Assembly (NCBI GenBank): GCA_023128825.1
Contig: JAGMDF010000082.1
Location: 8,626 to 72,625 of the forward strand
DNA length: 64,000 bases
Source: a candidate division WOR-3 bacterium
Lineage (GTDB): Bacteria > Hydrothermota > Tepidihabitantia > B3-TA06
Direction of reading: 5' to 3'
Made by a program: the position numbers and the translations under genes. Below the pieces are notes generated by a model. The model saw only the letters and a program-made list of their open reading frames with translations, was not told the origin of the DNA and ran no database searches. Below, piece after piece: positions 1,244-57,349 of this stretch (position 1 is its first letter; each line of letters begins with the position of its first letter).

Positions 1244-1708
1244 CTATAAGAGCGGCAGGTAAAGGCTGGAGATGGTCGTCCAGGAGTGGTATGCGCCGAG
1301 CGGGGTCTCGTAGTAAACCTTGGCCCTGATGCTGTAGGAAGCGGAATGCGATTTGATCATATTGAATATGGCCAAGCCTGCGCTGAGGTAGTCGAGAGCA
1401 ATATTGGCCTTGAATTTTACCGACTCGCCGGGCGGGATGGGCTTATCCTTAAAGCTTGCCGCCCCACCGCCTATCTCCTGGCCGTTGGCGTAGACACTGA
1501 ATTGCATGCGGTCGACTATTACCCCAACCCCGTTCGGGTTGGTAACGTCCATCTCAAGCTCGAGCTTGGCGTAGGTGAGGGCCTTTTCAACGGTCTCTAC
1601 GTCGGCCAGCCGGAACTCGCAGTCCTTGATACCCTTGGGCCGCATGCCCACGCAGCCTGCAAGAAAGATCGATGTCAAGACTGCAATCACGGATAATGTC
1701 TTTCTCAT
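1244..1708 (-). CDS. LEA_2/WHy-domain lipoprotein (paralogue)
   Basis: Start set at the internal ATG 1708-1706 (MRKTLSVIAVLTSIFLAGC lipobox), which has a GGAGGAG SD just upstream. The 338-aa ORF-track extension is antisense to the nitroreductase gene. Same motif: DVTNPNGVGVIVDRMQFSVYANGQEIG...IPPGESVKFKANIALDY. Confidence 0.7.
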   Translation of the reverse strand: MRKTLSVIAVLTSIFLAGCVGMRPKGIKDCEFRLADVETVEKALTYAKLELEMDVTNPNGVGVIVDRMQFSVYANGQEIGGGAASFKDKPIPPGESVKFKANIALDYLSAGLAIFNMIKSHSASYSIRAKVYYETPLGAYHSWTTISSLYLPLL

Positions 1709-1820
1709 AACTCCTCCATGTGAAAGACTACGTTCTAAAACCTGCTTGTCAAGTAGTTCCTTCAATCGAAGGAAGGGACGGGTGGTGTTGACTTGAGGTT
1801 CGAGGGAGGTATTCTTAGTC

Positions 1821-2396
1821 ATGGATAGATGGAGCGCATTTTTTGAATTGGTTGAAACCAGACGAAGCATCCGCCGCTTCGAGGATAAGGAGGTCGAGGA
1901 AGAAAAGATCCGAAAGATACTTGAGGCTCTCAGGCTTGCTCCCTCGTCATCCAACTCCCAGCCCTGGCACGTGGTAGTGGTGAGAGACAAGGAGGTAATC
2001 TCAGCACTCTCAAAGGCCGCACCTGTGGGTTCGCGATTCGTGATCTCGTGGATGTCCGGGGCTCCGCTGGTGTTCGTGCTCACCGTCCGACGCAAGCTGA
2101 CCCACCGTGTGGCGCGGGCCTTCGGACATGCAAACCTCTGGCTTGACGCGGGGATAGCTGGTGAGCATCTTGTACTGGCAGCACAAGCCCTTGGTTTTGG
2201 AACCTGCTGGATAGGCTGGTTCAGTGAAAGGAAGGTTCGCAAGCTTGTTGGACTTACCAAGGCGCATGAGGTGGTCGCCTTGATACCGTGCGGTTATCCG
2301 GCTGAGGAACCCGAACCCCGGCCAAGGAAGAGCCTGGAAGAGATATTCTCCGTGGAGCGATTCGGCGGCTCAGGGGGCATGGATGAGATATCCTAA
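1821..2396 (+). CDS. Nitroreductase family protein
   Basis: RRSIRRFEDKEV...ILEALRLAPSSSNSQPWHVVVV and the C-terminal CWIGWF...IPCGYP are typical of FMN nitroreductase fold proteins. Confidence 0.85.
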   Translation: MDRWSAFFELVETRRSIRRFEDKEVEEEKIRKILEALRLAPSSSNSQPWHVVVVRDKEVISALSKAAPVGSRFVISWMSGAPLVFVLTVRRKLTHRVARAFGHANLWLDAGIAGEHLVLAAQALGFGTCWIGWFSERKVRKLVGLTKAHEVVALIPCGYPAEEPEPRPRKSLEEIFSVERFGGSGGMDEIS

Positions 2397-2414: not shown

Positions 2415-2442
2415 TTGACAAGTGGCGTTACTTCCTTATTAT
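2415..2442 (+). promoter_or_regulatory. Sigma70-type promoter (TTGACA-16-TATTAT)
   Basis: TTGACA at 2415-2420 and TATTAT at 2437-2442. This implies a leader of about 245 nt before ATG 2694. Confidence 0.55.
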
Positions 2443-2693
2443 TGTGATAGTGAAAACTGCATGTGGGAGTACAGGTGATTTTGAGTATTTACGATCGTGC
2501 TGAGGATTATCTCGGCACGCGGGTCGAGGATCACAGCGATAGGGCTAATGGACAGTTTGAGCCATGCAATGATCTTAACCCTCAAACCGATCAGGCAGGC
2601 GGTTATGCCTTATAGCTTTAAGTGCATCCCCGACAGTTATGGACGTAAACCAAGAAACTTAGTTAAAAAAGCACTCTGTCAAGGAGGGAATTT

Positions 2694-4544
2694 ATGAAGA
2701 AAGCCCTTCTCGTTTTCTTGCTTGTGGCAGTAGCGGCGCCTGCTCAGTTCAGCGACGCCGTAGGAACTACTGCACACCCCCTTTTGAAGATAGGATTCGG
2801 GCCGCGTGCGGCGGCGATGGGTAACGCCTATGTAGGACTTGCACCGGACATCACCGCCCTCTGGTGGAATCCCGCAGGTCTCAACCAGCTCAACACCTAC
2901 GAAGCCCTGATCTCGCATCACGAATGGCTGCGGGGCATAAGAGACGAGTTTGCGGCCCTCATATGGCCGCAATCGGCCAACAACACCTTCGGTTTCGCCA
3001 TGAACTTTACAAGTGCTTCAGGCATCGAACGCTGGGATGCAGATAACAATCCGGGAACCGGGGCAGATTCCCTGGTCATGGCCTACGAGGCTATGCTTGT
3101 GGGCTCATACACTCGTCTCTTGGGTGAAAGATTCGGCGTAGGGGCGAGCTTTAAGGGTCTTTATGAGAATCTCGCCGGTCCTGCAGGCTACGGCGGAGCG
3201 GTTGATCTCTCGCTCCACTGGAAGGCTTCCCCGGTCTTCGCTCTGGGCCTTGCCCTGCAGAATCTTGGTCCCGGGATGTTCTATACAGGCGGCATGTATC
3301 TGTTTCCAATGCAGGCTCAGTTAGGTGCGGCACTTACGTTCGAGAATGTCCTCTACGGGTTGAACTTGTTAACCGACGTCCGGGTGCCCTTTGACAACAA
3401 TGTGAGCGTGCATGCCGGTGCCGAGGTTTGGCCGCTTGAGATCCTGGCCGCGCGCGTAGGGTTCCAGTCAGGTCCTCAGACATTGGGAGAGCTCAACTTC
3501 CTTGCCGGTCTGACCGGAGGCGTAGGACTTGTGTTGAACAACTATCGTGTTGATTACGCGATTGCCCCCTACGCCCACCTTGGATTGACTCATCGACTGG
3601 CTCTTATCGCGGCCTTCGGCGAGAGGCCGCGTTACGGCGGCGTCATAGTTCGCGTGATCGATGCGGAGACGAAGAAATCCCTTGCGGCCCATCTTAAGGT
3701 CGAGGGGGTTACCAGGGCAGAGAATGATCTGGTCGAGAATGAAACCTGGGAGCGCAAAGGACTCGCTCCAGGAAGGGTCTCTGCAACCGCCAGCAAGGAA
3801 GACTACTACCCATCCTCCGGTCAGGCCCAGATCAAAGCCGGCCAGACAGCCCAACTCGTCATCGCCCTCTCAAAGATCCCGCCTGGAGGAATAACAGGTC
3901 GTGTCTTCGACGTGAAGACTAACGATCCCCTTGTGGCCACGATTACCTACGAAGGACCCGAAGGGATCAAGGGCGAGGTCAAAACCGACGAAGAGGGCAA
4001 CTACACCATACCTGGACTCTACAGAGGCGACTATGCACTGTTTGCCGAGCCACAGCATCCCAAGTACTTCCCACAGGATGCCGAGGTTAAGGTAGAGGCG
4101 GCAAAAGGCGCCAGGAAGGACTTTGCGCTGCTGCGTGAGAAAGAGCTAATCGTCTTCTACAACGTGAACTTCGAGACCGGCGAGGCCAGGGTCCTTCCCG
4201 ATTTCTACGACGTGCTAGATGAGATCGGCCAGATATTTGCGGATAACCCCACGATCGTGGTGGAGCTGGGTGGACACACCGATTCACGTCCCATAAAGAC
4301 CCCGGAGTTCGCAGACAACGTGGAGCTCTCCCAGGCGCGTGTAGAAGCGGTCCGTGAGTATCTCATAGACAAGTTCCAAATCGATGAAGAACGACTCTCA
4401 GCCAAAGGATACGGCGACACACAACCTATTGCCTCCAATGAGACCGAAGAAGGTATGGCGAAGAACCGCCGCGTGGAGTTCAAGGTACTAACCGGTATTG
4501 AATACTTCCACGAGATCCGCAACATCAGACCAGAGGAAGACTAG
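2694..4544 (+). CDS. Outer-membrane protein: PorV/PorQ-type beta-barrel fused to two carboxypeptidase-regulatory-like domains and an OmpA_C peptidoglycan-binding domain
   Basis: Signal peptide MKKALLVFLLVAVAAPAQF. PorV/Q signature GPRAAAMGNAYVGLAPDITALWWNPAGL. Mid-region GGITGRVFDVKTNDPL...EEGNYTIPGLYRGDYAL (CRD-like). C-terminus ELGGHTDSRP...LSQARVEAVREYL...NRRVEFKV (OmpA_C). SD AAGGAGGG lies upstream. Confidence 0.8.
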   Translation: MKKALLVFLLVAVAAPAQFSDAVGTTAHPLLKIGFGPRAAAMGNAYVGLAPDITALWWNPAGLNQLNTYEALISHHEWLRGIRDEFAALIWPQSANNTFGFAMNFTSASGIERWDADNNPGTGADSLVMAYEAMLVGSYTRLLGERFGVGASFKGLYENLAGPAGYGGAVDLSLHWKASPVFALGLALQNLGPGMFYTGGMYLFPMQAQLGAALTFENVLYGLNLLTDVRVPFDNNVSVHAGAEVWPLEILAARVGFQSGPQTLGELNFLAGLTGGVGLVLNNYRVDYAIAPYAHLGLTHRLALIAAFGERPRYGGVIVRVIDAETKKSLAAHLKVEGVTRAENDLVENETWERKGLAPGRVSATASKEDYYPSSGQAQIKAGQTAQLVIALSKIPPGGITGRVFDVKTNDPLVATITYEGPEGIKGEVKTDEEGNYTIPGLYRGDYALFAEPQHPKYFPQDAEVKVEAAKGARKDFALLREKELIVFYNVNFETGEARVLPDFYDVLDEIGQIFADNPTIVVELGGHTDSRPIKTPEFADNVELSQARVEAVREYLIDKFQIDEERLSAKGYGDTQPIASNETEEGMAKNRRVEFKVLTGIEYFHEIRNIRPEED

Positions 4545-4610: not shown

Positions 4611-4678
4611 AGACCCCCCAAGCATCAAAAGCAAGCCCCGGTTAGGGGGCTTTGGCTTTTAAACGATGGATCTTTCAG

Positions 4679-4947: not shown

Positions 4948-6114
4948 CTACTCAACATCTGAGCTGGGCACTTGCTTAAGCCACTCGTCCAGCTTGACGA
5001 GCTCATTCTTCAACCCCACAGAGTGATACCCCCGACGAGCTTGCTTAAGAAGCTGCTCCAAACCAGTGACCTTAAACCCTAGTTCCTTCACCATTTCACC
5101 AAGCCTTCCGTGAAGCGACAGAAATCGCTCCACATCATCCGCTTTCTCAGCATAGGACAAAGCCTCGGTAAAGTAACGTATCGCCCTATCCACGGCCCCC
5201 TCGTAGACGGCCATCTCACCACGAACCATCTGAATATTACTCATCAGCGAAGCCGAGTCAACCCCTTTTGCCAGTCCTATAGCCTCCCTCAGGAAAGGAC
5301 CAACCTTATCGAGTTGCTCCAACCCTATGTGAACACGGGCAAGATTGCACAAAATAATGGCCAGGTTCTTGCGATCCCCTAACCCCTTAAAAAGTCCATA
5401 TGCCCCTTTCAGAGGTTCCAACGCCTCGGTAAACTCGTCTTGCTTAAGGTGCAGGGCACCACGCCGGAAGTGGGTGATTGCATCGAGTCTCTTATCGTCA
5501 AGTTGTCGAGCGAGTTCCTCAAGTTTCTCGAAACTCTGTATGGCGAGCTTCGGTTCATCCTTTTCCATATAGGAGGAAGCGATGCAGCCATAGCACCCGG
5601 CAAGCCCGCGCAGATCGCCAACATTCTCCAATCGCTTCTTCGCGTCTTCAAGAATCACAATGGCTTGACCGTGATCCCCGTAACGTTGACTGAGGACTGC
5701 CCTGTTTACGAGGATACGTCCCTGAAGACGCACATCCCCGGTGATGTTTGCAAGTGTCAAAGCCTCGCTCCACGCCTTATCAGCCAGGGCGTATCGGTTC
5801 ATGCGCGCGTACACATTCCCTAAGGCCAAAATACTCTTGCAGAGGACCTCAGAATCGCCACAGGTAAGGGCATACCTGCGTGCAATTGTAACGTAATCGA
5901 AGGCCTCGTTCAGTTGACCACGGTTAAGAAGCGCCTCTCCGGCTATCCGATTCAACTCTGCGCTCTCTACAGCCGTAGGGGTATGTTTAAGCCCCTGGAC
6001 AGCACAACGCAATGCATCCTCCGATTTGTCCTTCTTGATACACTCACGAGCCTCGGCAAGGAGCTTCGCGCTTTTACTCCTTCCCTCAGCTAATTCACTT
6101 GTGTTGTTGTTCAA
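4948..6114 (-). CDS. Tetratricopeptide (TPR) repeat protein
   Basis: 388 aa with a TTG start. Repeated A..Y/F..A..L/G 34-residue units run throughout (for example LGNVYARMNRYALADKAWSEAL and CNLARVHIGLEQLDKVGPFLREAI). Confidence 0.85.
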   Translation of the reverse strand: MNNNTSELAEGRSKSAKLLAEARECIKKDKSEDALRCAVQGLKHTPTAVESAELNRIAGEALLNRGQLNEAFDYVTIARRYALTCGDSEVLCKSILALGNVYARMNRYALADKAWSEALTLANITGDVRLQGRILVNRAVLSQRYGDHGQAIVILEDAKKRLENVGDLRGLAGCYGCIASSYMEKDEPKLAIQSFEKLEELARQLDDKRLDAITHFRRGALHLKQDEFTEALEPLKGAYGLFKGLGDRKNLAIILCNLARVHIGLEQLDKVGPFLREAIGLAKGVDSASLMSNIQMVRGEMAVYEGAVDRAIRYFTEALSYAEKADDVERFLSLHGRLGEMVKELGFKVTGLEQLLKQARRGYHSVGLKNELVKLDEWLKQVPSSDVE

Positions 6115-6291
6115 CCTATCCTCTTCTCCATACCTGATTTGAGATTCATCCCATTATTTATATACTCAAAGTCTACTGAAAACGAGCCCCTTGTCAAGCC
6201 TCGCCCGCTAATTGGAGAAAATAGATACTGATTTTTTTTTAAATATTTATATCATTATGCTCAAATCCGTACCCTTGCTACACTCTTCCTC

Positions 6292-6319
6292 TTGACAGAC
6301 CCGCTTTCTGGCCTATACT
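6292..6319 (+). promoter_or_regulatory. Promoter of tRNA-Gly (TTGACA-16-TATACT)
   Basis: TTGACA at 6292-6297 and TATACT at 6314-6319. The tRNA starts at 6333. Confidence 0.65.
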
Positions 6320-6332
6320 TTTCTTACTAGAT

Positions 6333-6405
6333 GCGGATGTAGCTCAGTTGGTAGAGCACAGGCTTCCCAAGCCTGTGGTCGCGGGTTCGAGTCCCGTCGT
6401 CCGCT
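6333..6405 (+). tRNA. tRNA-Gly (anticodon CCC)
   Basis: Cloverleaf read by eye: acceptor GCGGATG/CGTCCGC, D arm GCTC-AGTTGGTA-GAGC, anticodon arm CAGGC-TTCCCAA-GCCTG, T arm GCGGG-TTCGAGT-CCCGT. CCA is not encoded. Confidence 0.9.
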
Positions 6406-6430
6406 TAAGGCGTATTATACTGGAGGCTGA

Positions 6431-7198
6431 ATGGTTCAGTTCGTGTTAGCAGTTCTCTTGATGACAGGTGTGGAGTTGGAGGTGGATTGGAGTGAACTCT
6501 CGGTTCACTTCTATGGACCGGTTGATCTCGCTGGCGACACGCTATATAAGGGGGAGCTCAAGGCGAGTCTCGATTCACTGCTTGCAACCATACCACTCTA
6601 CGCGGAGTTGAGTCTAGGGGATGCAGTGGCTCGTTCACAAGACGCTCAGAATTACTTCCAAACCGTGCTCTCATATCCACAAGTCGTTTCTACTCGCTAC
6701 TCTACCGCGGGAGAGGTTCAGAACGAGTATGTAATAAGTCTGGTTGGACCCTTTCTCGATGAACTCATCCCACGCCTCACGCAACCTGCTTCTTTGCATG
6801 AGCAAGAATCGGATGCCTCAGCCGACGCCGGAGAGAACAACCTGAGCTTCATCCCCAGCACCGGCTTCATTATAGATACGCGAGGAACAGGTTTTCAGCC
6901 GGGTATCTTTCCGCGATTCCTTGATCCACAAGGTAACGTAATCCTTGATGCGGGTAACGTGGATAGGAACGTTTTGTTGGAACGTGGTTATGTGCATTAC
7001 GCATACTCGCCGCGGGCCGCGCTCCAGACACGGGAGCTTGGACTCAACCCCTTGAGGTTGATAGCCGAACGTGCCGCAGGGCGTGATCGCTGCGACATCG
7101 TTCTTTCCGATGCAGATGCAGAACGTATTCTGAGTTCACCGCTTAACCTGCGTTTGCTCTCCGAGTGCCGGGTAACCATCATCATCGACCGGCAATAG
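6431..7198 (+). CDS. Hypothetical protein (short N-terminal hydrophobic segment)
   Basis: 255 aa with SD GGAGG 4 nt before the ATG. Coding-like composition. No motif recognised. Confidence 0.6.
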   Translation: MVQFVLAVLLMTGVELEVDWSELSVHFYGPVDLAGDTLYKGELKASLDSLLATIPLYAELSLGDAVARSQDAQNYFQTVLSYPQVVSTRYSTAGEVQNEYVISLVGPFLDELIPRLTQPASLHEQESDASADAGENNLSFIPSTGFIIDTRGTGFQPGIFPRFLDPQGNVILDAGNVDRNVLLERGYVHYAYSPRAALQTRELGLNPLRLIAERAAGRDRCDIVLSDADAERILSSPLNLRLLSECRVTIIIDRQ

Positions 7199-7320
7199 AA
7201 CGCCGAGCGCTGGAGGGAAAAGGGTATGGGAAAGGCAGGATGGGGATTTGGTGAGATCTAGTTAAGCATTTTCCAGTTTTTCCTATTTGTATCTATGTAA
7301 GAACAACAAGGAGGAACAAA

Positions 7321-7953
7321 ATGAAAAAAGCTCTAACAATCATAGCCTTAATGGCACTAGGGGTGTCAACAGCATTCGGAGGCTCCATCCTATACGAGAC
7401 CCATATTGAGGATAGCCTCGATTTCGCTGGGGAGGGAATCGTAACGGTACTGGAACTAGAATTCACAACAGACCAGCCCAGCATCGTTTCTATTACATAC
7501 GGCGTGTCCAATGGGCATGGGTCAACTTATGGGCTTTCCTATTGGCTAACATGCAATGGAGATTCATTAGGAATGTCGACTTCGTGGAACCGGGGCACAA
7601 GCACTTACATGACCGAACTAGAATCGGGCACTTATACTTTAGGACTAGTGGGTAAGTTTTCCTCTGCAGGAGCTTACGTAGCCAACCCAAGGCTACAAGT
7701 GCTCGTATTTTACAACGACGCTCCCAGTGTCTCAGAAACTCCGCCTAACATCACTCTAACTGAAACCCATTCTATAATATCCTGCGGCCCTTCTGTAACT
7801 GTTCCAGGATGCAGTGAGGTTGTAGACATCTCAGGAAGAAAGGTTGATTGCGAAATCAACGGAGACCGAATCATGGTAAACAGTCTTTCAAGCGGGACCT
7901 ACATTGCAAGAGGTAGTGAAGGAAGAACCACCAAGATAGTGAAGCTGCAGTAG
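7321..7953 (+). CDS. Secreted protein with T9SS-type C-terminal sorting domain
   Basis: Signal peptide MKKALTIIALMALGVSTAFG. C-terminal VVDISGRKVDCEINGDRIMVNSLSSGTYIARGSEGRTTKIVKLQ fits the Por_Secre_tail pattern. SD AAGGAGGAA. Confidence 0.75.
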   Translation: MKKALTIIALMALGVSTAFGGSILYETHIEDSLDFAGEGIVTVLELEFTTDQPSIVSITYGVSNGHGSTYGLSYWLTCNGDSLGMSTSWNRGTSTYMTELESGTYTLGLVGKFSSAGAYVANPRLQVLVFYNDAPSVSETPPNITLTETHSIISCGPSVTVPGCSEVVDISGRKVDCEINGDRIMVNSLSSGTYIARGSEGRTTKIVKLQ

Positions 7954-8083
7954 TAAGGCTTTCTAGCTTTCAAGAATTTACCCCGTGTAATCAACGTAAA
8001 GTGGCCTGGATTGGGTTTGATAGCCCAGTCGGCTACTCTTTTTTACCTAAGTATTGAGTTGTAATTATTCGTAGGAGGATCAG

Positions 8084-8284
8084 ATGGGTGTTACTCCAGA
8101 TAGACCCAAAAAGTTTGTTCACATAGTAAGAATAGGGCAGGAGGTATGGAATCTGACAGGACAGGTAAGAAATGTTTACCGTGTATATAGAAGTTCAGGG
8201 AGGTGGGTACAGACTCAGATTGACCCTGATCCTGAGTTGCCCTATAAGTATAAGGGGCTTGTGGTACGTAAAGACATGGCTTAA
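8084..8284 (+). CDS. Small basic hypothetical protein (66 aa)
   Basis: Strong SD GTAGGAGGATCAG-ATG, and a hairpin terminator follows at 8322-8355. No recognisable family. Confidence 0.35.
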   Translation: MGVTPDRPKKFVHIVRIGQEVWNLTGQVRNVYRVYRSSGRWVQTQIDPDPELPYKYKGLVVRKDMA

Positions 8285-8321
8285 TCCGAGGTTGCGCTCC
8301 TGAACCAACCACAGATAGATC

Positions 8322-8355
8322 TAGCGAGTTCTCTTCCCTCGCTAAGAGCATTTTT
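8322..8355 (+). terminator. Putative rho-independent terminator
   Basis: Stem TAGCGAG (8322-8328) / CTCGCTA (8338-8344), then AGAGCATTTTT. Confidence 0.45.
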
Positions 8356-8364
8356 GGTTAAAGG

Positions 8365-8604
8365 TTAGGAGGACTTGTTTGTTTTGGAGTTCTTCGTTCT
8401 AGACAACTCGGATGCAGAATCCTTACGTTTATAGTCGGTTTCGTAAAAACCACTCCCCTTGAAGATAACCCCTATACCTGTACCTATGAGGCGTTTAACA
8501 GGACTGCCGCACTTCGGACAGCGGCGCAAAGGCTCAGCTGAGATCGGCTGCAGGCGCTCAAAGGCGTATCCGCATACCTTGCAACGGTACTCGTAGATCG
8601 GCAT
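8365..8604 (-). CDS. FmdB-family zinc-ribbon putative regulatory protein
   Basis: Start set at ATG 8604 (MPIYEYRCKVCGYAFERLQPISAEPLRRCPKCGSPVKRL), the canonical CxxC...CxxC FmdB N-terminus. The upstream 9 codons of the track ORF are discarded. Confidence 0.85.
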   Translation of the reverse strand: MPIYEYRCKVCGYAFERLQPISAEPLRRCPKCGSPVKRLIGTGIGVIFKGSGFYETDYKRKDSASELSRTKNSKTNKSS

Positions 8605-8613
8605 ACAACTAAA

Positions 8614-8642
8614 ATTATAGTCCGCACTCACCCCCTTGTCAA
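8614..8642 (-). promoter_or_regulatory. Promoter of the FmdB-like gene (TTGACA-17-TATAAT), near-leaderless
   Basis: The minus strand reads TTGACA(8642-8637)-17 nt-TATAAT(8619-8614), with only 9 nt to ATG 8604 and no SD. Confidence 0.6.
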
Positions 8643-8643
8643 G

Positions 8644-8671
8644 TTGACAAATTCACATGATCGTGTAGAAT
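8644..8671 (+). promoter_or_regulatory. Promoter of the HEAT-repeat gene (TTGACA-16-TAGAAT)
   Basis: TTGACA at 8644-8649 and TAGAAT at 8666-8671. Its -35 box and the divergent one form the palindrome TTGTCAAGTTGACAA (8636-8650). Confidence 0.6.
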
Positions 8672-8699
8672 ATATTAGATTAAAGGCAACTGGAGGAGT

Positions 8700-10280
8700 G
8701 TGATGTTTGTCTGGCTTCTACTTTTCAGTGCCCCGCTTGACTGCGGAGCTTTTGATGTAATGGCGTTTCGTTCCATAGAAGAGCGTCACGAGTACATAGA
8801 CTCCCTTGCCGGGGAGGATCTTTATGGGACGATAAGTCTGTTGAGTGAAGTCTTGAACTGCCCCTCGGAGCAGACGCGTATGTTTGCTGCCGAAGCTCTT
8901 GGGTATCTGAGTGACCCTGGAGCCACACCTGCCCTTAGTGCTGCGCTAAAGTCGCCCTCTACCGGGGTTCGCTACGAGGCCGCATGGTCATTGGGATTGT
9001 TGGGTGATACCTCAGCGGTGACGTCTTTGATTGAGGCGCTTTCTGATCGTGCGGCACCGGTGCGAACCAACGCCGCCTGGGCGCTGGGGGAGATCGCAGA
9101 CGCGCGGGCGATCGGCGCGTTACTGAAGGCCCTTGACGATACCGACCATCGCGTCCGCAAGAACGCAACCGAGGCCTTGGGTAAGCTCGAATCCAAGGAG
9201 GCGGTTCCTATTTTCCTTGAGCGCCTTTCTTCCCTTTCAGGTCCAGAACGCAACAGTACACTCGCCGCACTGACGAAGATCGCCGACCCCCGAGCCACCG
9301 AGGTTCTCGCCCAAGCCGCCACTAACCCCTCCGTTCCTGACCGCCACCTCATAGCACAGGCACTCGGTCGAATGGGCGACACCACCGCTGTAGAGACCTT
9401 GATAAAGCTCTTGGATGATCCCCGGTGGGCCGTTCGTGCGAAGGCGGCGTGGTCGTTGGGAATGCTTAAAGATAAACGCGCGGTAAAACCACTCCAGACA
9501 AAAGCTACAGACAAGAAATCCGAGGTAAGACAGGCGGTGTTCGAGGCGCTCGGACGCTTAGGCGAGATCTCGGCTGAGGACGTCCTGATCGAAGGTCTTG
9601 CGGATGAGAGCGACCTTTGCGTGATGGCCTCAGCACACGCCCTCGGGCTTCTGGGAAGCAGGAAGGCGCTAGAGCCTCTGATCGAGTTAATGTCCAACCC
9701 GGAACCACCGGTGAGGGAGCAGGTGGCCTTTGCCCTGGGCGCGATTGGAGATCCAGCCGCGGCTGCCTCACTGCGCGCGCGACTCAACGACGCCTCATGG
9801 GAGGTCCAACAGGCCTCCGTGACCGCTATCGGAAGGCTCAAGGACGCATCATCCCTCGAATCGCTGCGTCCGGTTTTGTTCCACAAGTTCTGGAGCATTC
9901 GCCTTGCAGGGGTACAGGCTCTGGGCGCAATCGGTGCTTCGGAAGGACTGCCCCTGCTCCAACAGCGCTTCAAGGACGAGCACCCGGACGTGCGGCGCTG
10001 GTCACATCTGGTGGCCTTGAAGCTGGGAGCCGATCCGGGGAAAGCCCTTACCGGTCTCAAAGAAGAAAACCCTTCCTCTGAGATGCTGGAGGCCGCAACC
10101 TACATGGCAGGAGAGGAGGAGTCGTTAGGACCATGGCAAGGAGAGCTGACAGAGGAACGCTTAAAGCTTCTTGAACTGGTTCATACCGATGAAGCCCGAG
10201 CATTACTTGAGTCGCTCTCCATCCCAGCGGACAACCCGGAGCTCGGCGAGCTGCGCTTGATTATCCTAAGGAGCTGGTAG
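8700..10280 (+). CDS. HEAT-repeat (PBS-lyase-type) protein
   Basis: More than 12 tandem units of about 31 aa of the type VR..AA.ALG..GD..AV..L..AL.D. The start is GTG 8700 or ATG 8703, behind GGAGGAG. Confidence 0.85.
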   Translation: MMFVWLLLFSAPLDCGAFDVMAFRSIEERHEYIDSLAGEDLYGTISLLSEVLNCPSEQTRMFAAEALGYLSDPGATPALSAALKSPSTGVRYEAAWSLGLLGDTSAVTSLIEALSDRAAPVRTNAAWALGEIADARAIGALLKALDDTDHRVRKNATEALGKLESKEAVPIFLERLSSLSGPERNSTLAALTKIADPRATEVLAQAATNPSVPDRHLIAQALGRMGDTTAVETLIKLLDDPRWAVRAKAAWSLGMLKDKRAVKPLQTKATDKKSEVRQAVFEALGRLGEISAEDVLIEGLADESDLCVMASAHALGLLGSRKALEPLIELMSNPEPPVREQVAFALGAIGDPAAAASLRARLNDASWEVQQASVTAIGRLKDASSLESLRPVLFHKFWSIRLAGVQALGAIGASEGLPLLQQRFKDEHPDVRRWSHLVALKLGADPGKALTGLKEENPSSEMLEAATYMAGEEESLGPWQGELTEERLKLLELVHTDEARALLESLSIPADNPELGELRLIILRSW

Positions 10281-10478
10281 AAGGACACCAGGATAAGAGC
10301 CGCAGGGTTAACCGTCAATGCCGAAAGTAGGGGGGACAGCGATGATGACTCTCGCAGGTCGCCATCCTTATGGTGCAGCTCCCTTACGGTCGCTACCCTT
10401 CGGACGAACCGCCGATTAGCTTTTTTAAGGAAGACTCTGGATCAGCTAGGAACGCCAATCCACTCTTAAGTGTAAAAT

Positions 10479-10522
10479 GGGGTCCCCGCGAGAATGCGAA
10501 GCAGGCTTGCGGGGTAAAAAAA
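10479..10522 (+). repeat. Family-B hairpin repeat, copy 1 (GGGGTCCCCGC-stem/loop-GCGGGGTAAAAAAA)
   Basis: GGGGTCCCCGCGAGAATGCGAAGCAGGCTTGCGGGGTAAAAAAA. Tandem with copy 2 at a 45-nt period. Confidence 0.8.
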
Positions 10523-10523
10523 C

Positions 10524-10566
10524 GGGGTCCCCGCAAGGAGGCGAAGCATCCTTGTGGGGTAAAAAA
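10524..10566 (+). repeat. Family-B hairpin repeat, copy 2; probable terminator of tRNA-Gln when read on the minus strand
   Basis: GGGGTCCCCGCAAGGAGGCGAAGCATCCTTGTGGGGTAAAAAA abuts the 3' end of tRNA-Gln. On the minus strand each hairpin is followed by a T-run. Confidence 0.75.
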
Positions 10567-10637
10567 CTGGGGGACAGGGACTCGAACCCCGATTAACTGA
10601 TCCAGAGTCAGCCGTCCTGCCATTAGACGATCCCCCA
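10567..10637 (-). tRNA. tRNA-Gln (anticodon CTG)
   Basis: The minus strand reads TGGGGGA-TC-GTCT-AATGGCA-GGAC-G-GCTGA-CTCTGGA-TCAGT-TAAT-CGGGG-TTCGAGT-CCCTG-TCCCCCA-G. The U1-A72 pair is typical of bacterial tRNA-Gln. Confidence 0.9.
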
Positions 10638-10684
10638 ATAGTCAAGATTGATTATAAGGGCCAGGCTAATAATGTCAAGCAGGC

Positions 10685-14482: not shown

Positions 14483-14583
14483 TCTTCTTTTCGCAACCCC
14501 TGGGGTAAAGGCTCTAATAAGTTACGTACAATGAGGAACTTATTAACAACATGCGGCAGGGTCCCGTTCTTTGATCTGTTATT

Positions 14584-52573: not shown

Positions 52574-53656
52574 TTAAAACGCTATTCCCAGCGAAGCGCG
52601 ATGAACCGGCGCTAAATACCAGTGCCACTCGAAGCTGTAGTCAACCGCTACGTCGTAGCTTCCGACAGGTATCTTGACGCCAAGCCCTGCCGAGGGGCCG
52701 CGGGTGTTGCGGTTAGAAAGCACTTCACGAGCAATAGTGGCGGCATCAACGGATGTGGTGCCTTCTTCGTCGTCTCCAAAATCGGGTGCGGTGTTGAGAC
52801 CTAAACCCAGGCGCAAGAAAAGCGTCTCGTTGAGCCCATACTCCAGGCCGATGGCACCCTTGGCAGGCTGGTCCGATATATGAGCGAAATCCGCTGTCAT
52901 GGTAAGACGTGAGGGGGGACCTTCAATAAGGTCTATGGCCACACCGCCAGCAAATGTGAAGGGCATGTGGAAAGGTTCGGATTTGTAGGTGGACGGTATG
53001 TCCTCGGTCTGAAGGGTATCCTTTCTGGTGTTGAAGATGAGACCTTCACCTTTGTATGCCATGTCCGGACCGAAGTGCTGCACCACGAATCCCAACCTGA
53101 AGTTGCGTATCCCGACGTTATAGGTAGCACCGACATCAACCGCGAATCCCCAGGCGGCAACTCGATGCAGGGTAAGGTCGATGGCTTTAAGGGTGACACC
53201 CGCCGAGAACTTTTCAGTCATCTTGCGTCCATAGGATATACCCACCGCGTAGTTGTTGGCCATGTAGTAGTTACCCGTACCGTCTTGATCATCGTAGGTC
53301 GTGATTTCAATCGGGCCGGAAAGGTGCGCGAGAACCTGAAAACCTAACGCGTCGAGTTCGCTTAAGGGAACTCCGAGTGCAAGATTCTCTTCAAGCATGC
53401 CGGCAAAGAGGATCGCCTGCCCGAAGGTCCCGGCTATCCTGTCCATATTAGCTATCCCGGCCGGGTTCCAGAATAAAGCGTCCGGTCCGTCGGCCAAGGC
53501 GGTATAGGCACACCCCATAGCTATGGGGCGGGCACCGCCGCCCATCGTAAGGAAGGACACGGAGGCACCGGACCCACCCAGACGTGCCGAAAGCGGCGTC
53601 GCGATCACCGCCAGGGCCAGGATGCTGAGGACAAGGAGTCTTCTACTCGTCTTCAT
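52574..53656 (-). CDS. PorV/PorQ-family outer-membrane beta-barrel
   Basis: Signal MKTSRRLLVLSILALAVIATPLSA. Signature GGGARPIAMGCAYTALADGPDALFWNPAGIANM. Terminal aromatic residue (GIAF). Confidence 0.75.
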   Translation of the reverse strand: MKTSRRLLVLSILALAVIATPLSARLGGSGASVSFLTMGGGARPIAMGCAYTALADGPDALFWNPAGIANMDRIAGTFGQAILFAGMLEENLALGVPLSELDALGFQVLAHLSGPIEITTYDDQDGTGNYYMANNYAVGISYGRKMTEKFSAGVTLKAIDLTLHRVAAWGFAVDVGATYNVGIRNFRLGFVVQHFGPDMAYKGEGLIFNTRKDTLQTEDIPSTYKSEPFHMPFTFAGGVAIDLIEGPPSRLTMTADFAHISDQPAKGAIGLEYGLNETLFLRLGLGLNTAPDFGDDEEGTTSVDAATIAREVLSNRNTRGPSAGLGVKIPVGSYDVAVDYSFEWHWYLAPVHRASLGIAF

Positions 53657-53665
53657 CTTTTCCTC

Positions 53666-56600
53666 CTACCGGATGATGGCAAACTTGCCAACTTTGGTTT
53701 TCTTCTTGCCGTCCGAGGTTTCGGCCTCAACCTGCCAGATATACAAGCCGCTTGTACAGTCCATTCCTGCTTCGGTTAAGAGATCCCATTCCTCGGAACC
53801 TGCAGCTCCATAGAGGCCTTCTCCATCGTGCTCGATCGTACGAATCAAAAGACCCGCCGAGTTGAAGATCCTGATACTACACTTGAGGGGCAGGCGCTGG
53901 AAGATCACGTGACGGTCGTACTGACTGCGATCCCAGGGGGCGCGTACGTAGTAGGGGTTGGGAACAACCCGGACGTCGTCAAGGGTCTGGGTGGTGTCGT
54001 CTTCATCCAAACGAGCTGCAAACGTAGTGTAGCGGAAGCGATCCTCTTCGCTGGTAGCTTTGAGCGTCTTTATGAGGAACTTGTCCCCGGGCTCAGGCGG
54101 TATAACGTACCTTGTGGTGTCCCAACCTATCGTGTCGTTAGTAACGGTATCGACAATCGGCCTCCGGGTCGTAGCCGTGTCAACGAAGGAGAGTTTGAAC
54201 ACCTCCTTACCAGGCTTTATCTCTTCCCAGTAGATGGAAACACTGGTGTTGCCCGTGATGTCCAAGCGATCAATGTTCGGGTCGCCGTCTTTATTCCATA
54301 GGAAAGATTCCACCGGCTCGTTATTATCGTATCGATTAACCACCACAGGGCCCCACCGATCTTTACCATCTTGTGCGCTGTCAACCACTGTTACAAGGTA
54401 ATCGATGGTGTAGGGAACAGGTCTTCCTCGAATTGCGTTGGTCCAATCCATATTCCAATACATGTCGGTCTTAGAGGGTCTCTCGAGCCAGCCGGTATAG
54501 AGGGTGTCAATCAACTCCTCGACATCCAGGGTGTCAATGGGAACAGAGGCAACCTGAACCAGCACCCCGTCGATGATCGGACCGCTCAGCTCGCCCGCGT
54601 GCGTAAGGAAGCTGTCGAGAACGAGGGAGTCGGCATCAACGTCCTTGAAGTAGGCGTACTTGATGATGTCCAGGGTGTCTATCGTCACATCCGATCCTTC
54701 GATAATGGTATCGATCCTGGTCACCGCGCGGAAGCCGACCTCGTACTCGTGGCCTGTGATCTCGTCCGGGGAGATGAGGCTGTCTCTAACCAGCGCGCTG
54801 CCGTCGCCAGCAACACGAATTACCGGCCCGACCATCGCATCCTGCCAGCCCATCGGGTTGGAGCGGGAAACCGCCCAGTAGGTTTTGCCGGTCTTGCCGC
54901 CTTCAAGCGACTCCACACCTTCGGTGGGTTGAGGTTTAGAATAGGATGTAACGGAGTAGTAGTAGATCTGACCGTTGCGAACATCCTCATCGACGTAGTA
55001 GTGACGCACGCCGACCTGCCCGCCGAGCTGAGTTTCGGTGTAAGTGTTAATGGTGAAGACCTCGCCGTGAATCGGTTCAAGGATGTCTCCAGTAGCGCCT
55101 GAGTCGGCGTCTGAGATGCAGTACTGCCCGCCGTCGATAAAGATTATATCTCCGGACTCGTAGGGATAGTAGTGGGGGCCGTCGACGCCGCCGGTAATCG
55201 GGTCTGCATTGGTTACCGTAACTCCGGGCAAAACAGGCTTAACGATGGTGGTGATCTGACCGGCCGTGACGTTACCTACAGTACCAGCTACCCTTGCCTC
55301 GATATTAACGTCCACCGGGGTTCCCGGAGGGTCAATCGTCCCGTTTTGCGTAGTCTCGAACTCCACGTATCCGAAGACAGGGTTGTCTGCATCGGTGGCG
55401 ACGATTGTACCTTTGGGAATCAGCGTGTCACCGGGACCAGGAGTAAAGGTCACTTTACCCTTGGCTTTTACCGCTGCGGGAAAAGCCTTGGGGGTGCCGT
55501 TGAGTTTGTCAAGCACGCAGTAACCACTTTCTTCAAGGGCATCGGGGTTGTAGGTCAGGATGTTCTGGGTTGCAACGTCATAGACGATGTAATACTTGTA
55601 AGAGGTGTCCTTCTTGTCCTGCTGGAATGTGAGGGTGTAGGTGTTGGGCTCGAATCCGTACTCGGCTGGTTCCTTGCGAGTGAATTCATTGTAGTATACC
55701 TCAAGGAACTCGATGCTGGCCTTGCTCGGCCCGGATGTGTGTTCGACAACGGCCGTATCCGGATTTTTCGAATCCTTCAGATCGTAGTCGCCAAGGAGTT
55801 GCCAGGTCTCTGAGAGCCCCGAAAGACTCTTGTAGATCCGGTAACCTTCAAAGGTCGGCTGACCGCTCATCGGATCAATATAGTGCTCAGATTCACTGCC
55901 CCAGGTAAGATAGACTACGCTGTCGCCGGGAATCACCGAAAGGGAGGGGTTCGGAGGAGGTGCGTAGCCGAAGTAACCGTTCTCGAACTGAATCTTAGCA
56001 GACTTGGCCTTCTCTTTGAGTTCATCAAAAGAGTAGGCAACGATCACCGCGATGGTTAACTCCACCTCTTCATCAGGCTTCAGGTGCGGATAAGGGCCGC
56101 AGTTCATGAGCATGCGTACGTCGTTAGGCTTATCATAAGTCCAAAACTCCGTATGGGCCATGTAAGCGTACTTGAGACTGTCCTGTCCCAGGTTGTCTAT
56201 CTCATAACCGTTCGGCCAGGTCTCGAAGCCTGTTAGTCCGATATCCAGAGGGGTATCGAGGAAAACAGCACCTATGTATCCTGCCGGGGTAACCCAGCCT
56301 TCCTCCGAGCCGTTGGCATCGTAGGTGTAACCCATGTTGAGTTCCTGATCGAACCCGATCAGATCGTCCCAGAAACCGTCATCACCTGCACTGGTTCCAC
56401 CCTCTCCGATGTCGTTGTCCATGAAGAAGGAGAAGTAGACCGAATCCAGCGGGAAGTCGTTCATATTCCTAATCTTGTAGTTGATGAAGATGTAGGAATT
56501 GTTGTACTCGTAGTTCCAGGCATACGTACGCTGCTCGATTCTTAGCCCCTGCCCACGCAAGTCGTAGGCACCTGTTGAGAGTATCCATATGCACGTGGCG

Positions 56601-57349
56601 TCGTTGGCCGGAATCCAGTCCCCGCCGCAGGCGTAGCTATCCTGCTCGGAGATGATGTCTCCGTTTCCAAAGGGACCAGGGCTGACCTCAGGCATCTGTA
56701 TTGCACGGCGATACTTGTTGATCGTGGTATCCGTAAACGGCCAGAGCACCTGGTAGTCAAGAGGGGTAGTTCCGGGAGTGGCAAAGAGCCTTCCGCCTTC
56801 ACCGTCATACCCGTAGCCTTGAGGGATGGTCATATCACTGAAGTAAAGCCCGAGGTTGCTGATGTCGCGCATGCCGCCTGCGATTTTCATCTCCGGAGCG
56901 GCCATAGCTCCAATGTCCGAGTTAAAGGCACCCTTGGAGACGTTATAGACCATCTCGTCTCCAACCGGGTAGTGGCTGCCGACCCACAGACCCCACGCAT
57001 AGGTGTAGAACTGCTCTGAGCCTTTGGGATACTCGGCGTTCCTGCCTCTCGTGTTAGGATAAAGCCTGCTAGACTCTATGGGGAATTCCCCTCTGTATTC
57101 GTGTTCGTCTGCCGGGTGGCGGGCGAATGTGCCGCCCTGAAGGGTATTGCTGACCAGGAAGTCTGAGATGTTTCCTGCGTCTACCCACCATATCATCCAC
57201 CAGGAGGCCGCCTCGTTTGTCGCCACGGTCAAGAGACGGTTTTGATTTTGGGGTGCAAGCTGAACGTCGCTATCCATTCTGGCAAGAACGGGTAAAGCCA
57301 GAAACACGAGGCTCGCTAAAACAAGGATTGTTTTTCTTTTCATCGTCAT
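53666..57349 (-). CDS. 1227-aa secreted protein of unknown function with T9SS/FlgD-Ig-like C-terminal sorting domain
   Basis: Signal peptide MTMKRKTILVLASLVFLALPVLA. C-terminus VVPNPYYVRAPWDRSQ...CSIRIFNSAGLLIRTIEHDG...WDLLTEAGMDCTSGLYIWQVEAETSDGKKKTKVGKFAIIR. No catalytic motif recognised. Confidence 0.8.
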   Translation of the reverse strand: MTMKRKTILVLASLVFLALPVLARMDSDVQLAPQNQNRLLTVATNEAASWWMIWWVDAGNISDFLVSNTLQGGTFARHPADEHEYRGEFPIESSRLYPNTRGRNAEYPKGSEQFYTYAWGLWVGSHYPVGDEMVYNVSKGAFNSDIGAMAAPEMKIAGGMRDISNLGLYFSDMTIPQGYGYDGEGGRLFATPGTTPLDYQVLWPFTDTTINKYRRAIQMPEVSPGPFGNGDIISEQDSYACGGDWIPANDATCIWILSTGAYDLRGQGLRIEQRTYAWNYEYNNSYIFINYKIRNMNDFPLDSVYFSFFMDNDIGEGGTSAGDDGFWDDLIGFDQELNMGYTYDANGSEEGWVTPAGYIGAVFLDTPLDIGLTGFETWPNGYEIDNLGQDSLKYAYMAHTEFWTYDKPNDVRMLMNCGPYPHLKPDEEVELTIAVIVAYSFDELKEKAKSAKIQFENGYFGYAPPPNPSLSVIPGDSVVYLTWGSESEHYIDPMSGQPTFEGYRIYKSLSGLSETWQLLGDYDLKDSKNPDTAVVEHTSGPSKASIEFLEVYYNEFTRKEPAEYGFEPNTYTLTFQQDKKDTSYKYYIVYDVATQNILTYNPDALEESGYCVLDKLNGTPKAFPAAVKAKGKVTFTPGPGDTLIPKGTIVATDADNPVFGYVEFETTQNGTIDPPGTPVDVNIEARVAGTVGNVTAGQITTIVKPVLPGVTVTNADPITGGVDGPHYYPYESGDIIFIDGGQYCISDADSGATGDILEPIHGEVFTINTYTETQLGGQVGVRHYYVDEDVRNGQIYYYSVTSYSKPQPTEGVESLEGGKTGKTYWAVSRSNPMGWQDAMVGPVIRVAGDGSALVRDSLISPDEITGHEYEVGFRAVTRIDTIIEGSDVTIDTLDIIKYAYFKDVDADSLVLDSFLTHAGELSGPIIDGVLVQVASVPIDTLDVEELIDTLYTGWLERPSKTDMYWNMDWTNAIRGRPVPYTIDYLVTVVDSAQDGKDRWGPVVVNRYDNNEPVESFLWNKDGDPNIDRLDITGNTSVSIYWEEIKPGKEVFKLSFVDTATTRRPIVDTVTNDTIGWDTTRYVIPPEPGDKFLIKTLKATSEEDRFRYTTFAARLDEDDTTQTLDDVRVVPNPYYVRAPWDRSQYDRHVIFQRLPLKCSIRIFNSAGLLIRTIEHDGEGLYGAAGSEEWDLLTEAGMDCTSGLYIWQVEAETSDGKKKTKVGKFAIIR

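Follow-up and report, generated by a model that had tools for sequence, protein, structure and literature searches.

The window, by which we mean the whole 64-kb stretch of DNA analysed, carries a gene for a 616-aa protein in which an outer membrane barrel is followed by two carboxypeptidase-regulatory-like domains (CRD) and an OmpA-like domain. The features of the gene, with the basis of each call in brackets, are as follows.

2694..4544, + strand: complete gene, PorV/PorQ-family barrel, two CRD and OmpA_C, 616 aa (ORF and translation, domain matches, model, selection)
2694..2744, + strand: predicted Sec signal peptide MKKALLVFLLVAVAAPA, without a lipobox cysteine (sequence reading)
2766..2888, + strand: N-terminal hatch or plug segment, aa 25-65 (short helices in the model; motif)
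2898..3617, + strand: 14-stranded beta-barrel, aa 69-308 (DSSP strand list, fold matches)
3630..3878, + strand: CRD1, carboxypeptidase-regulatory-like Ig domain, aa 313-395 (Pfam CarboxypepD_reg, model, own HMM)
3879..4136, + strand: CRD2, carboxypeptidase-regulatory-like Ig domain, aa 396-481 (Pfam, best stretch aa 400-479)
4137..4493, + strand: OmpA_C-like peptidoglycan-binding domain, aa 482-600, with D530/N542/R549 (Pfam OmpA, PDB matches)
4633..4662, + strand: hairpin resembling a terminator, followed by a T-rich tail, some 90 nt past the barrel-gene stop (consensus scan alone)

The ORF begins with an ATG that has AAGGAGG 6 nt on its 5′ side and is a real gene and not a chance ORF, because it has full-length homologue clusters and a low dN/dS. 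Cleavage of the signal peptide is predicted before Q18, and the pattern at this site (A-x-A followed by QF) is kept in homologues. The hatch carries the FadL-superfamily motif G-x-R-A-x-x-M-G...W-N-P-A-G, the stretch GPRAAAMGNAYVGLAPDITALWWNPAGL quoted in the original prediction corresponding to aa 35-62, and six of its residues (G34, R38, G43, D52, W58 and N59) are invariant across 25 homologues. An AlphaFold2 model of the protein (mean pLDDT 82) placed the helical hatch at aa 25-65, 14 beta-strands at aa 69-308, beta-sandwiches at 315-394 (CRD1, with seven strands) and 398-479, and an alpha/beta OmpA-like domain at 485-598. The outward-facing barrel loops are short in this model, and the last barrel strand ends ...LALIAAF. 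Pfam CarboxypepD_reg matched two stretches of the protein (49.9 bits; cutoff, 32.3) and OmpA (PF00691) matched aa 493-592 (60.4 bits against a gathering threshold of 27.2). The three-part architecture that had been read from the letters is thus borne out by domain matches above cutoff and by the model.

The Barrel Belongs to the PorV/PorQ Family

The NCBIfam PorV/PorQ family model (NF033709, cutoff 90) matched aa 25-306 of the full protein with 138.7 bits and the barrel portion alone with 141.6 bits. The scores for PorV proper (NF033710, 59.8-63.5 bits) and PorQ proper (NF033711, 73.2-76.9 bits) lie far under their equivalog cutoffs of 250 and 220, respectively. The best fold matches of the barrel were the PorV structures 6h3i_F and 8gl6_F, and PorV was the top match in every structure and PDB-sequence comparison. 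The PorV/PorQ-type barrel that had been proposed was therefore confirmed by family score, strand number and nearest fold. We rejected FadL/TodX identity, FadL being an alternative named in the original prediction, given that PorV ranked first throughout and that Toluene_X (FadL/TodX, PF03349) gave no match to the 616-aa protein at E up to 1; PorP/SprF identity was likewise rejected, as no PorP/SprF model matched the barrel at E up to 0.01 in NCBIfam or up to 0.05 in Pfam.

Like PorV of F. johnsoniae and PorQ of P. gingivalis, the window protein has an N-terminal hatch motif and a FadL-like barrel of 14 strands, and porU-porV-type arrangements likewise have a barrel gene after a CTD-bearing gene. 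It differs in that it is only about 22% identical to PorV, has a smaller barrel with short loops, and bears a predicted periplasmic CRD-CRD-OmpA_C extension of about 300 aa that PorV and PorQ lack; moreover, PorV and PorQ occur in Bacteroidota, whereas the window-type family occurs in WOR-3 and Cloacimonadota. OmpA and OprF likewise carry an OmpA_C domain after the barrel, which is periplasmic and binds peptidoglycan non-covalently, as is predicted for the window protein, and they share with it an internal last strand with a terminal aromatic residue, but theirs is an 8-strand barrel of another family, without Ig spacers and without genetic coupling to CTD cargo. Weak matches to Pfam UPF0164 were found in the 616-aa protein and in 22/30 variant relatives. 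The FadL-like proteins of Treponema in this Pfam family are FadL-superfamily barrels with periplasmic C-terminal extensions, which are helical or TPR-like rather than Ig plus OmpA_C, and we know of no linkage of these proteins to CTD cargo.

The Predicted Periplasmic Tail Resembles That of PorE

The PorE model (NF052230) matched aa 400-579, that is, CRD2 and OmpA_C, with 66.2 bits against a whole-protein cutoff of 600, and the CHU_0125 family model (NF053607) matched the OmpA part alone with 83.2 bits against a cutoff of 620. PorE identity was rejected on this score together with the lack of TPR, beta-propeller and lipobox cysteine, and CHU_0125 identity was rejected on its score and the confinement of the match to the OmpA part. 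Bacteroidota proteins of the PorE/CHU_0125 type are nevertheless the nearest relatives of the tail outside the family, which agrees with the PorE-like CRD and OmpA_C modules anticipated for it. The OmpA_C domain matched PDB 6top with an E of 6e-15. In PorE the peptidoglycan-contact triad is D576/N584/R591 (PMC7192894); D530, N542 and R549 of the window protein correspond to it and are invariant in 25 homologues.

In P. gingivalis, PG1035, PorP and PorE form an arrangement of cargo, barrel and peptidoglycan tether (PMC9143113), and porP-like/porE-like gene pairs are also present in F. johnsoniae (PMC9143113, PMC7192894). The relatives of the window protein follow the same logic, with a CTD surface protein, a barrel encoded directly downstream, and CRD plus OmpA_C with a D/N/R triad. 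The parts differ: the barrel is PorP/SprF-type in the Porphyromonas system and PorV/Q-type here, the cargo tail is type B there and type-A-like in the relatives of the window protein, and PorE (PG1058) is a separate lipoprotein with TPR and beta-propeller domains and one CRD, whereas the window protein has the tether fused to the barrel, two CRD and neither of those domains. The fusion does not qualify as a Rosetta stone in the strict sense for contact between PorE and PorP, because the partner of PorE is PorP and the window barrel has no PorP/SprF match; at most, the fusion may be an analogous solution with a PorV/Q-type barrel.

In Relatives the Barrel Gene Follows an FG-GAP Gene with a Type-A-like CTD Tail

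A homology search returned about 30 full-length homologue clusters with identities down to 37%, and about 60 clusters share the barrel-CRD-CRD-OmpA architecture (61 proteins among the sequences parsed), in addition to variants with other spacers. About 360 representatives reach an E of 1e-30 or lower. Most named members belong to MAGs of candidate division WOR-3, and one is from Cloacimonadota; WOR-3 and Cloacimonadota assemblies with the gene include GCA_965648905.1, GCA_964624585.1 and GCA_016934635.1. Ten distant representatives carry record names of 'OmpA family protein [WOR-3]' or the generic 'MotB' only. A search limited to the barrel yielded just four proteins and did not recover the full-length family already known, and no taxonomic survey was drawn from it. 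Within this barrel subfamily a C-terminal OmpA domain is the rule and not a rare fusion, with many spacer types. Among the variants, a barrel-OmpA-OmpA gene (L094) follows a CTD protein gene with a 4-bp overlap, and a related barrel-X-OmpA gene (L095) stands solitary among housekeeping genes.

At 13 independent homologue loci the barrel gene lies directly 3′ of a gene for an FG-GAP protein of about 1030-1230 aa, usually with a stop/start overlap (L001/L016, L002/L003, L004, L007/L008, L011, L012 twice, L013, L014, L017, L018, L019, L020 and the Cloacimonadota locus L021 have this partner). Measured at seven loci, the spacing extended from genes overlapping by 11 bp to genes 3 bp apart, and the gaps at L012 and L021 are longer. 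In L002 the barrel gene occupies 10001-11839. The FG-GAP proteins of different loci are mutually homologous, and their tails share PNPF, IYNRAGE and WDG..G..APGVYLY motifs and a basic end, conserved in seven lineages. Type-A CTDs were taken to be defined by TIGR04183 / PF18962 (23 / 27 bits) together with C-terminal PNP, I-x-D/N-x-x-G-R/E-x-V and G-V/I-Y motifs. All of these motifs are present in the partner tails, while the scores remain under the curated cutoff of every CTD model (Por_Secre_tail, 16-19 bits, cutoff 23; FlgD_ig, 24-26 bits, cutoff 27; CHU_C, 22-24 bits, cutoff 27); we call the tails type-A-like. The ancestral first gene of the operon encodes a BamB-like propeller (86 bits with the BamB model, cutoff 285) and, unlike the CTD-cargo gene, is present in the closer clade only.

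A Deletion Scar Precedes the Barrel Gene in the Window

In the window, the following features lie upstream of the barrel gene.

2415..2442, + strand: promoter-like site TTGACA-16-TATTAT, conserved promoter of the ancestral four-gene operon (11/12 consensus match)
2463..2477, + strand: conserved RBS GTGGGAG and conserved start-codon position (GTG 2475), both from the first gene of the ancestral operon (alignment, translation from 2475)
2475..2688, + strand: pseudogene remnant, last ~75 codons of the FG-GAP cargo CTD (tblastn, CTD-tail alignment)

The promoter-like site aligns with the spacer between the nitroreductase gene and the first operon gene of L002, L007, L014, L009 and L006, and the GTG start of the BamB-like propeller gene is now fused to CTD codons. 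The remnant was matched in two frames by tblastn with the L002 and L007 FG-GAP proteins (E about 1e-9); it is frameshifted, contains stop codons, and holds the barrel-gene RBS at its 3′ end. In the window, tblastn for a second copy of the FG-GAP cargo found the remnant alone. As read from these alignments, a deletion of about 6 kb has removed the FG-GAP cargo gene and two further operon genes. The same junction is found in L006 and L096. The relatives form a series that starts with the full operon, continues with mini-ORFs (128 and 62 aa) of two lineages that underwent deletion independently, and ends with the frameshifted scar of the window. A single deletion shared by the window and L009 was rejected from the neighbour-joining topology (a tree without support values) and from the differing junctions.

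Although its cis cargo has been lost, the barrel gene is still subject to strong purifying selection. Its dN/dS against close relatives is 0.127 and 0.086, and in the orphaned copies dN/dS is 0.06-0.12 across all four domains. The window protein keeps 60/63 family-invariant positions, and only 4/63 are changed in any orphan, all of them outside the predicted surface loops. Given the low dN/dS and the largely kept invariant positions, we rejected a relaxation of constraint in the orphaned copies.

A Second Barrel Pair and the Type IX Context

The window holds a second pair of genes of this kind.

52574..53656, - strand: second PorV/PorQ-family barrel, 360 aa, without a periplasmic tail (NF033709, 146.8 bits against 90)
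53666..57349, - strand: 1227-aa predicted secreted protein that ends in a type-A-like CTD tail, partner of the second barrel (own CTD HMM, tail read directly)

The second barrel is 31% identical to the first over 207 aa, and its gene lies 9 bp downstream of the CTD-bearing gene. The 1227-aa protein is not homologous to the FG-GAP cargo; its tail reads VPNPY...IRIFNSAGLLI...SGLYIW...FAIIR, and it matched our own CTD HMM with an E of 4e-5 and, weakly, the PorZ and PorU C-termini. CTDs encoded in the window besides the one at 53666-57349 include one at 29983-31671. A protein above the Por_Secre_tail cutoff also lies within the window, and the lineage has a PorU-like C25 peptidase that bears a CTD. 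No T9SS translocon or motor gene (SprA/Sov, PorK/L/M/N) was found in the 64-kb window or among the called flank genes, and no T9SS core gene is linked to the barrel gene across 15 or more loci. The link to T9SS made in the original prediction stands in part, on the CTD signals of the lineage and the cargo gene upstream in relatives, and is not supported as regards the translocon in the sequence covered. Our literature search found no relevant report of a T9SS in WOR-3 or of a PorV-OmpA fusion.

Discussion

We lean towards the view that the family is a wall-fixed dock for CTD-bearing surface proteins, made of a PorV/Q-type barrel and a PorE-like tail. The 14-stranded barrel would sit in the outer membrane with its C-terminus running into the periplasm, where the two Ig-like spacers would lead to an OmpA_C that binds the diaminopimelate of peptidoglycan, so that the barrel would be held to the cell wall. 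Ancestrally, it would have been a dedicated, immobile dock for the type-A-like CTD of the large FG-GAP surface protein encoded directly upstream and translationally coupled to it, giving a chain from surface protein through CTD, barrel and Ig spacers to peptidoglycan; passage of the cargo would presumably depend on a T9SS translocon. A single polypeptide would thereby take on the role that in Porphyromonas is shared between the PorP barrel and the PorE lipoprotein, which serve the type-B cargo PG1035; the docking would resemble PorQ holding PorZ. PorV binds type-A CTDs, PorQ anchors PorZ, the genes for cargo, PorP-like and PorE-like proteins adjoin, and attachment of non-mobile cargo to the wall has been put forward (PMC12618676, PMC10947112, PMC9143113). 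In the window lineage the operon promoter was kept in front of the barrel gene after the deletion and, since the gene is still constrained without its cargo, the orphan barrel would serve CTD proteins encoded elsewhere or act as a general membrane-to-wall staple. Several observations count against a dock: the partner tails score under every curated CTD cutoff, no T9SS translocon or motor gene was found in the window or the flanks covered, the barrel is far from the PorV and PorQ equivalog cutoffs, the short loops of the model would offer less CTD-binding surface than PorV, two lineages without the cargo gene keep the constraint on the barrel undiminished, and the L095 variant is solitary.

Alternatively, the protein may be a general staple between outer membrane and peptidoglycan, the lineage's functional equivalent of OmpA/OprF, with the FG-GAP link reflecting co-regulation of envelope proteins and not physical docking, and the barrel serving as an anchor only. 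Such a cargo-independent role would explain both the constrained orphans, which have survived two independent cargo losses, and the solitary L095 variant, and it fits the intact OmpA_C binding triad and the prevalence of C-terminal OmpA domains across the subfamily. We still regard it as rather unlikely: linkage to a CTD gene is kept from WOR-3 to Cloacimonadota (32% identity), a pattern for which co-regulation by itself hardly accounts, the barrel is a member of the only family for which binding of such CTDs is known, and the tail-less paralogue in the same window also pairs with a CTD protein. Retention of the gene after loss of the neighbouring cargo, together with the family membership, the PorE-like tail, and the CTD proteins and PorU-like peptidase of the lineage, would also suit a core part of a type IX-like machinery, a general PorV/PorQ equivalent for all CTD cargo whose tail would, like PorE, fix the secretion or attachment complex to the wall. 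This we consider improbable, as a wall-fixed barrel could not shuttle cargo laterally like PorV, the genomes have several PorV-family barrels, each beside its own CTD gene and hence suggestive of dedicated pairs, the PorV, PorQ and PorE equivalog cutoffs are missed widely, and the 15 or more loci lack linked core genes.

Accessory barrels have reportedly been seen of late in BAM complexes of Bacteroidota, and a BamB-like propeller gene heads the ancestral operon. Even so, a BAM-associated accessory barrel, or a FadL-type channel for hydrophobic compounds with a wall-binding tail, seems very improbable, given the consistent first rank of PorV, the lack of a Toluene_X match, the low BamB score and the restriction of the BamB-like gene, unlike the CTD-cargo gene, to the closer clade.

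Returning to the dock, surface retention of T9SS cargo that is not lipid-linked and the wall fixing of the machinery are only partly understood, and the model of PorE, PorP and cargo rests on pull-downs from a single species. The family described here offers a natural polypeptide in which barrel, spacers and peptidoglycan binder are joined, with a CTD gene adjoining in nearly all relatives, and hence a simple system for CTD-barrel recognition and for the distance between membrane and wall. It extends the PorV family, and would extend CTD-based surface display, to the candidate phylum WOR-3, and the deletion series provides a natural experiment in which the barrel keeps a selected function without cis-encoded cargo. 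It is possible, if somewhat doubtful, that these proteins are a previously undescribed class of wall-fixed CTD docks outside Bacteroidota, each barrel-tether fusion having its own type-A-like CTD protein. If so, WOR-3 (Caldifarciminota) and Cloacimonadota would have in CTD-barrel docking combined with wall anchoring an old modular route to a fixed surface layer, and the PorV/Q-type barrels of Bacteroidota would be predicted to contact PorE-like tethers.

Architecture and family of the barrel protein

The barrel gene (2694-4544, +) is an intact ORF of 616 codons that begins at ATG, with AAGGAGG lying 6 nt ahead of it. Its product begins with a Sec signal peptide, MKKALLVFLLVAVAAPA followed by QF, without a lipobox cysteine, and the motif quoted in the original prediction was located at aa 35-62. 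The three-part architecture proposed there was confirmed, with NCBIfam NF033709 'PorV/PorQ family' (aa 25-306, 138.7 bits, cutoff 90), Pfam CarboxypepD_reg (CRD; two stretches, 49.9 against 32.3) and Pfam OmpA (60.4 against 27.2) all scoring above cutoff. An AlphaFold2 model built on an alignment of 25 homologues (mean pLDDT 82) contained the following elements.

aa 25-65, short N-terminal helical hatch
aa 69-308, 14 beta-strands
aa 315-394 and 398-479, two seven-strand sandwiches
aa 485-598, alpha/beta OmpA-like domain

The predicted mature N-terminus is a Gln (A-x-A before QF; 2745-2750, aa 18-19) that is kept in homologues. It recalls the 'Q-rule', the Bacteroidetes pattern for signal peptidase I substrates (PMC5837995), and is absent from other secreted proteins in the window.

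PorV ranked first for the barrel in three independent comparisons. A PDB profile search returned F. johnsoniae PorV (6h3i_F, E 2.4e-14), and Foldseek returned PorV 8gl6_F and 6h3i_F (E 7e-14; TM on target 0.66-0.69), the TM values for the other barrels FadL and TodX being 0.52 and 0.46. The barrel therefore belongs to the PorV/PorQ branch of the FadL superfamily. PorV proper and PorQ proper were ruled out by equivalog scores of 60-77 bits against cutoffs of 220-250, and PorP/SprF models searched with the barrel gave zero matches.

FadL and PorV barrels have both termini in the periplasm, so the CRD-CRD-OmpA_C tail should be periplasmic. The NCBIfam PorE model covers aa 400-579 (CRD2 and OmpA_C), scoring 66 bits where the cutoff is 600, and D530, N542 and R549 of the OmpA_C domain (in GHTD...N-VELSQAR), invariant in the 25-member alignment, correspond to PorE D576, N584 and R591, whose side chains touch peptidoglycan in the crystal structure of PorE (PMC7192894). 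Many Bacteroidota loci matched the aa 400-600 module when species-representative genomes were scanned, and the sole one inspected, from Lacibacter (L047), encodes a full-length PorE/CHU_0125-type protein. Given this resemblance the tail is PorE-like, whereas the whole protein is not a PorE, as it lacks the TPR, propeller and lipid anchor of PorE. The original interpretation is partly supported: the likening of these modules to PorE was right, while the accompanying proposal of a 'Rosetta stone' for the PorE-PorP pair does not hold strictly because the barrel family differs from PorP.

A deleted cargo gene upstream of the barrel gene

In relatives, a gene for an FG-GAP-repeat protein lies directly upstream of the barrel gene in every homologue locus having upstream sequence (cargo-linked loci L001/L016, L002/L003, L004, L007/L008, L011, L012, L013, L014, L017-L020 and Cloacimonadota L021). 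Spacing was measured in seven loci, the extremes being an overlap of 11 bp and a gap of 3 bp; L012 and L021 have longer gaps, roughly 70-270 bp by called or matched start. These upstream proteins are mutually homologous, 1027-1229 aa long where complete, and hallmarks of a type-A T9SS C-terminal domain (CTD) are present in their final ~90 residues, namely HNFPNPF, VxLxIYNRAGExV, WDG..G..APGVYLY and a basic end, although these tails score slightly below the curated cutoffs of the Por_Secre_tail, FlgD_ig and CHU_C models. The FG-GAP gene of the closer clade has two extra genes in front of it, one for a BamB-like PQQ propeller and one for a protein of ~440-480 aa whose FlgD_ig-type tail scores above cutoff. 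Of two variant loci, L094 (barrel-OmpA-OmpA) likewise sits downstream of a CTD protein gene with a 4-bp overlap, and L095 (barrel-X-OmpA) stands alone amid housekeeping genes.

Several side observations were made at these loci. A WOR-3-like contig (L012, 6052-8597) holds a second tandem cargo-barrel pair whose barrel protein has two CRD domains without OmpA, and several such proteins also occurred among the parsed representatives. Directly downstream of the barrel gene, L011 encodes a HEAT-repeat protein that weakly matches BamE (5257-6480); the window encodes a 526-aa HEAT-repeat protein at 8700-10280. Window ORFs of 255 and 210 aa (6431-7198 and 7321-7953) had no Pfam/NCBIfam match, and L006 and L009 carry a 255-aa gene at the equivalent site downstream of their barrel genes, alike in position and length.

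Only ~300 bp separate the barrel gene from the nitroreductase gene (1821-2396) in the window. This stretch, 2397-2693, is spacer-like in appearance and is a deletion scar, because the FG-GAP CTD can still be recognised by its last ~75 codons at 2472-2688, in two frames with stop codons inside, and because the sites listed below align with the region ahead of the operon's first gene in L002, L007 and L014.

2415-2442 (+), promoter-like site TTGACA-16-TATTAT
2463-2469 (+), RBS GTGGGAG
2475 (+), GTG at the ancestral start-codon position of the first operon gene

Reading from GTG 2475 passes straight into CTD codons (V-ILSIYDRAEDYLG...). By comparison with syntenic L002 and L007, the loss amounts to about 6 kb and runs from codon 2 of the first operon gene to ~codon 953 of the FG-GAP gene. 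The same scar is present in a 97% relative (L006), and a 78% relative (L096) retains this junction in a mini-ORF of 62 aa, intact but decayed; the deletion is therefore older than the divergence of the three lineages. In L009/L010 the remnant is different, an ORF of 128 aa that uses the same start codon, and in an NJ tree (no support values) full-operon lineages separate L009/L010 from the window clade, which points to a second, independent cargo loss.

In the adjoining region (803-2260, -), relatives carry a pair of neighbouring LEA_2 genes, about 146-159 aa in length. Given these and the overlap with the opposite-strand nitroreductase gene, the 338-aa ORF at 1244-2260 (-) is probably over-extended.

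Constraint on the orphaned barrel gene and spread of the family

The dN/dS ratio was 0.127 between the window copy and L006 (42 synonymous and 18 non-synonymous differences) and 0.086 against L096, where each of the four domains gave 0.06-0.12 at a dS of ~1.5, near saturation. The window copy retained 60 of the 63 positions invariant in 13 cargo-linked homologues, and no orphan-specific changes in predicted surface loops were found among the 63. Judged from these substitution patterns, the orphaned gene has stayed functional.

HMMER, run exhaustively against 1.84 billion representatives, yielded 359 proteins at E <= 1e-30. The top matches, together with the earlier homologue set, were parsed using HMMs of the four segments, which gave 61 proteins of barrel-CRD-CRD-OmpA type, 27 with another spacer before OmpA, several with two or three OmpA domains after the barrel and 29 with the barrel only. 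Spacers in the variant set include FlgD_ig-type Ig domains (9/30), TPR, fn3 and TSP_3. From these counts and varied spacers, a wall-binding tail is the usual state within this barrel subfamily. Database labels are generic only, named members being called 'PorV/PorQ family protein' or 'OmpA family protein' from candidate division WOR-3 (now phylum Caldifarciminota); full-length matches in GTDB representatives came from WOR-3 MAGs, two unclassified MAGs and one Cloacimonadota MAG. No description of the architecture or its operon was found in the searchable literature. Two further fusions, P0031 (1054 aa; barrel, then ~740 aa bearing a FlgD_ig domain) and L037 of Latescibacteria (7140-8900; ~300-aa N-terminal extension ahead of the same barrel), could be either real or gene-calling artefacts.

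CTD proteins elsewhere in the window

The window is ordinary chromosome, with YidC, MnmE, LptF/LptG, class V FBPase, AccD, glycosyltransferases, a MacB-type efflux set and three tRNAs. The presence of LptF/LptG makes the host an LPS-bearing diderm. The fructose-1,6-bisphosphatase (14726-15814) is of archaeal type (PF01950, 609 bits). No T9SS core genes were found within the 64-kb window. A 562-aa secreted protein (29983-31671) has a T9SS type-A sorting domain scoring above cutoff as Por_Secre_tail in NCBIfam (TIGR04183, 28.5 against 23) and Pfam (PF18962, 28.0 against 27), which shows that this genome uses CTD signals; the protein also has a weak CBM9-like region. In addition, the window has a second cargo-barrel pair, its members 9 bp apart.

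53666-57349 (-), 1227-aa secreted protein with type-A-like CTD tail, upstream member
52574-53656 (-), 360-aa barrel-only PorV/PorQ-family gene (NF033709, 146.8 bits)

These follow a 1050-aa CRD+Plug TonB-dependent-receptor-like protein in a three-gene row (52574-60514, -; order receptor-like, CTD protein, barrel; gaps 12 and 9 bp). The 1227-aa protein gave an unexpected Pfam Baseplate_J match at aa 625-723 (49 bits against 21). In a WOR-3 MAG, L009 encodes a PorU-like Peptidase_C25 protein bearing a FlgD_ig-type CTD (13675-17038, -; 133 and 41 bits), adjoining a 470-aa CTD protein gene and a few kb from the barrel gene, which suggests that a sortase-like attachment step may operate in the WOR-3 phylum.

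Proposed role of the barrel protein

PorV binds type-A CTDs, PorZ is held at the surface by PorQ, PorP-like barrel genes sit directly downstream of their own type-B cargo genes, PorP is tied to peptidoglycan by PorE, and wall anchoring of non-mobile cargo through such complexes has been proposed (PMC12618676, PMC10947112, PMC9143113). The present family shares the three-part logic of cargo-PorP-PorE but differs in barrel type, in the type-A-like cargo tail and in having the tether fused to the barrel. The best-supported reading is that the barrel protein would be a wall-fixed dock for CTD-bearing surface proteins. That it is a general membrane-to-wall staple and nothing else appears unlikely; retention of the gene after cargo loss is compatible with such a staple and with service to CTD proteins in trans. 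Being wall-bound, the barrel as a dock would anchor rather than shuttle, and the orphaned copy may either serve CTD proteins encoded elsewhere or staple the membrane to the wall.
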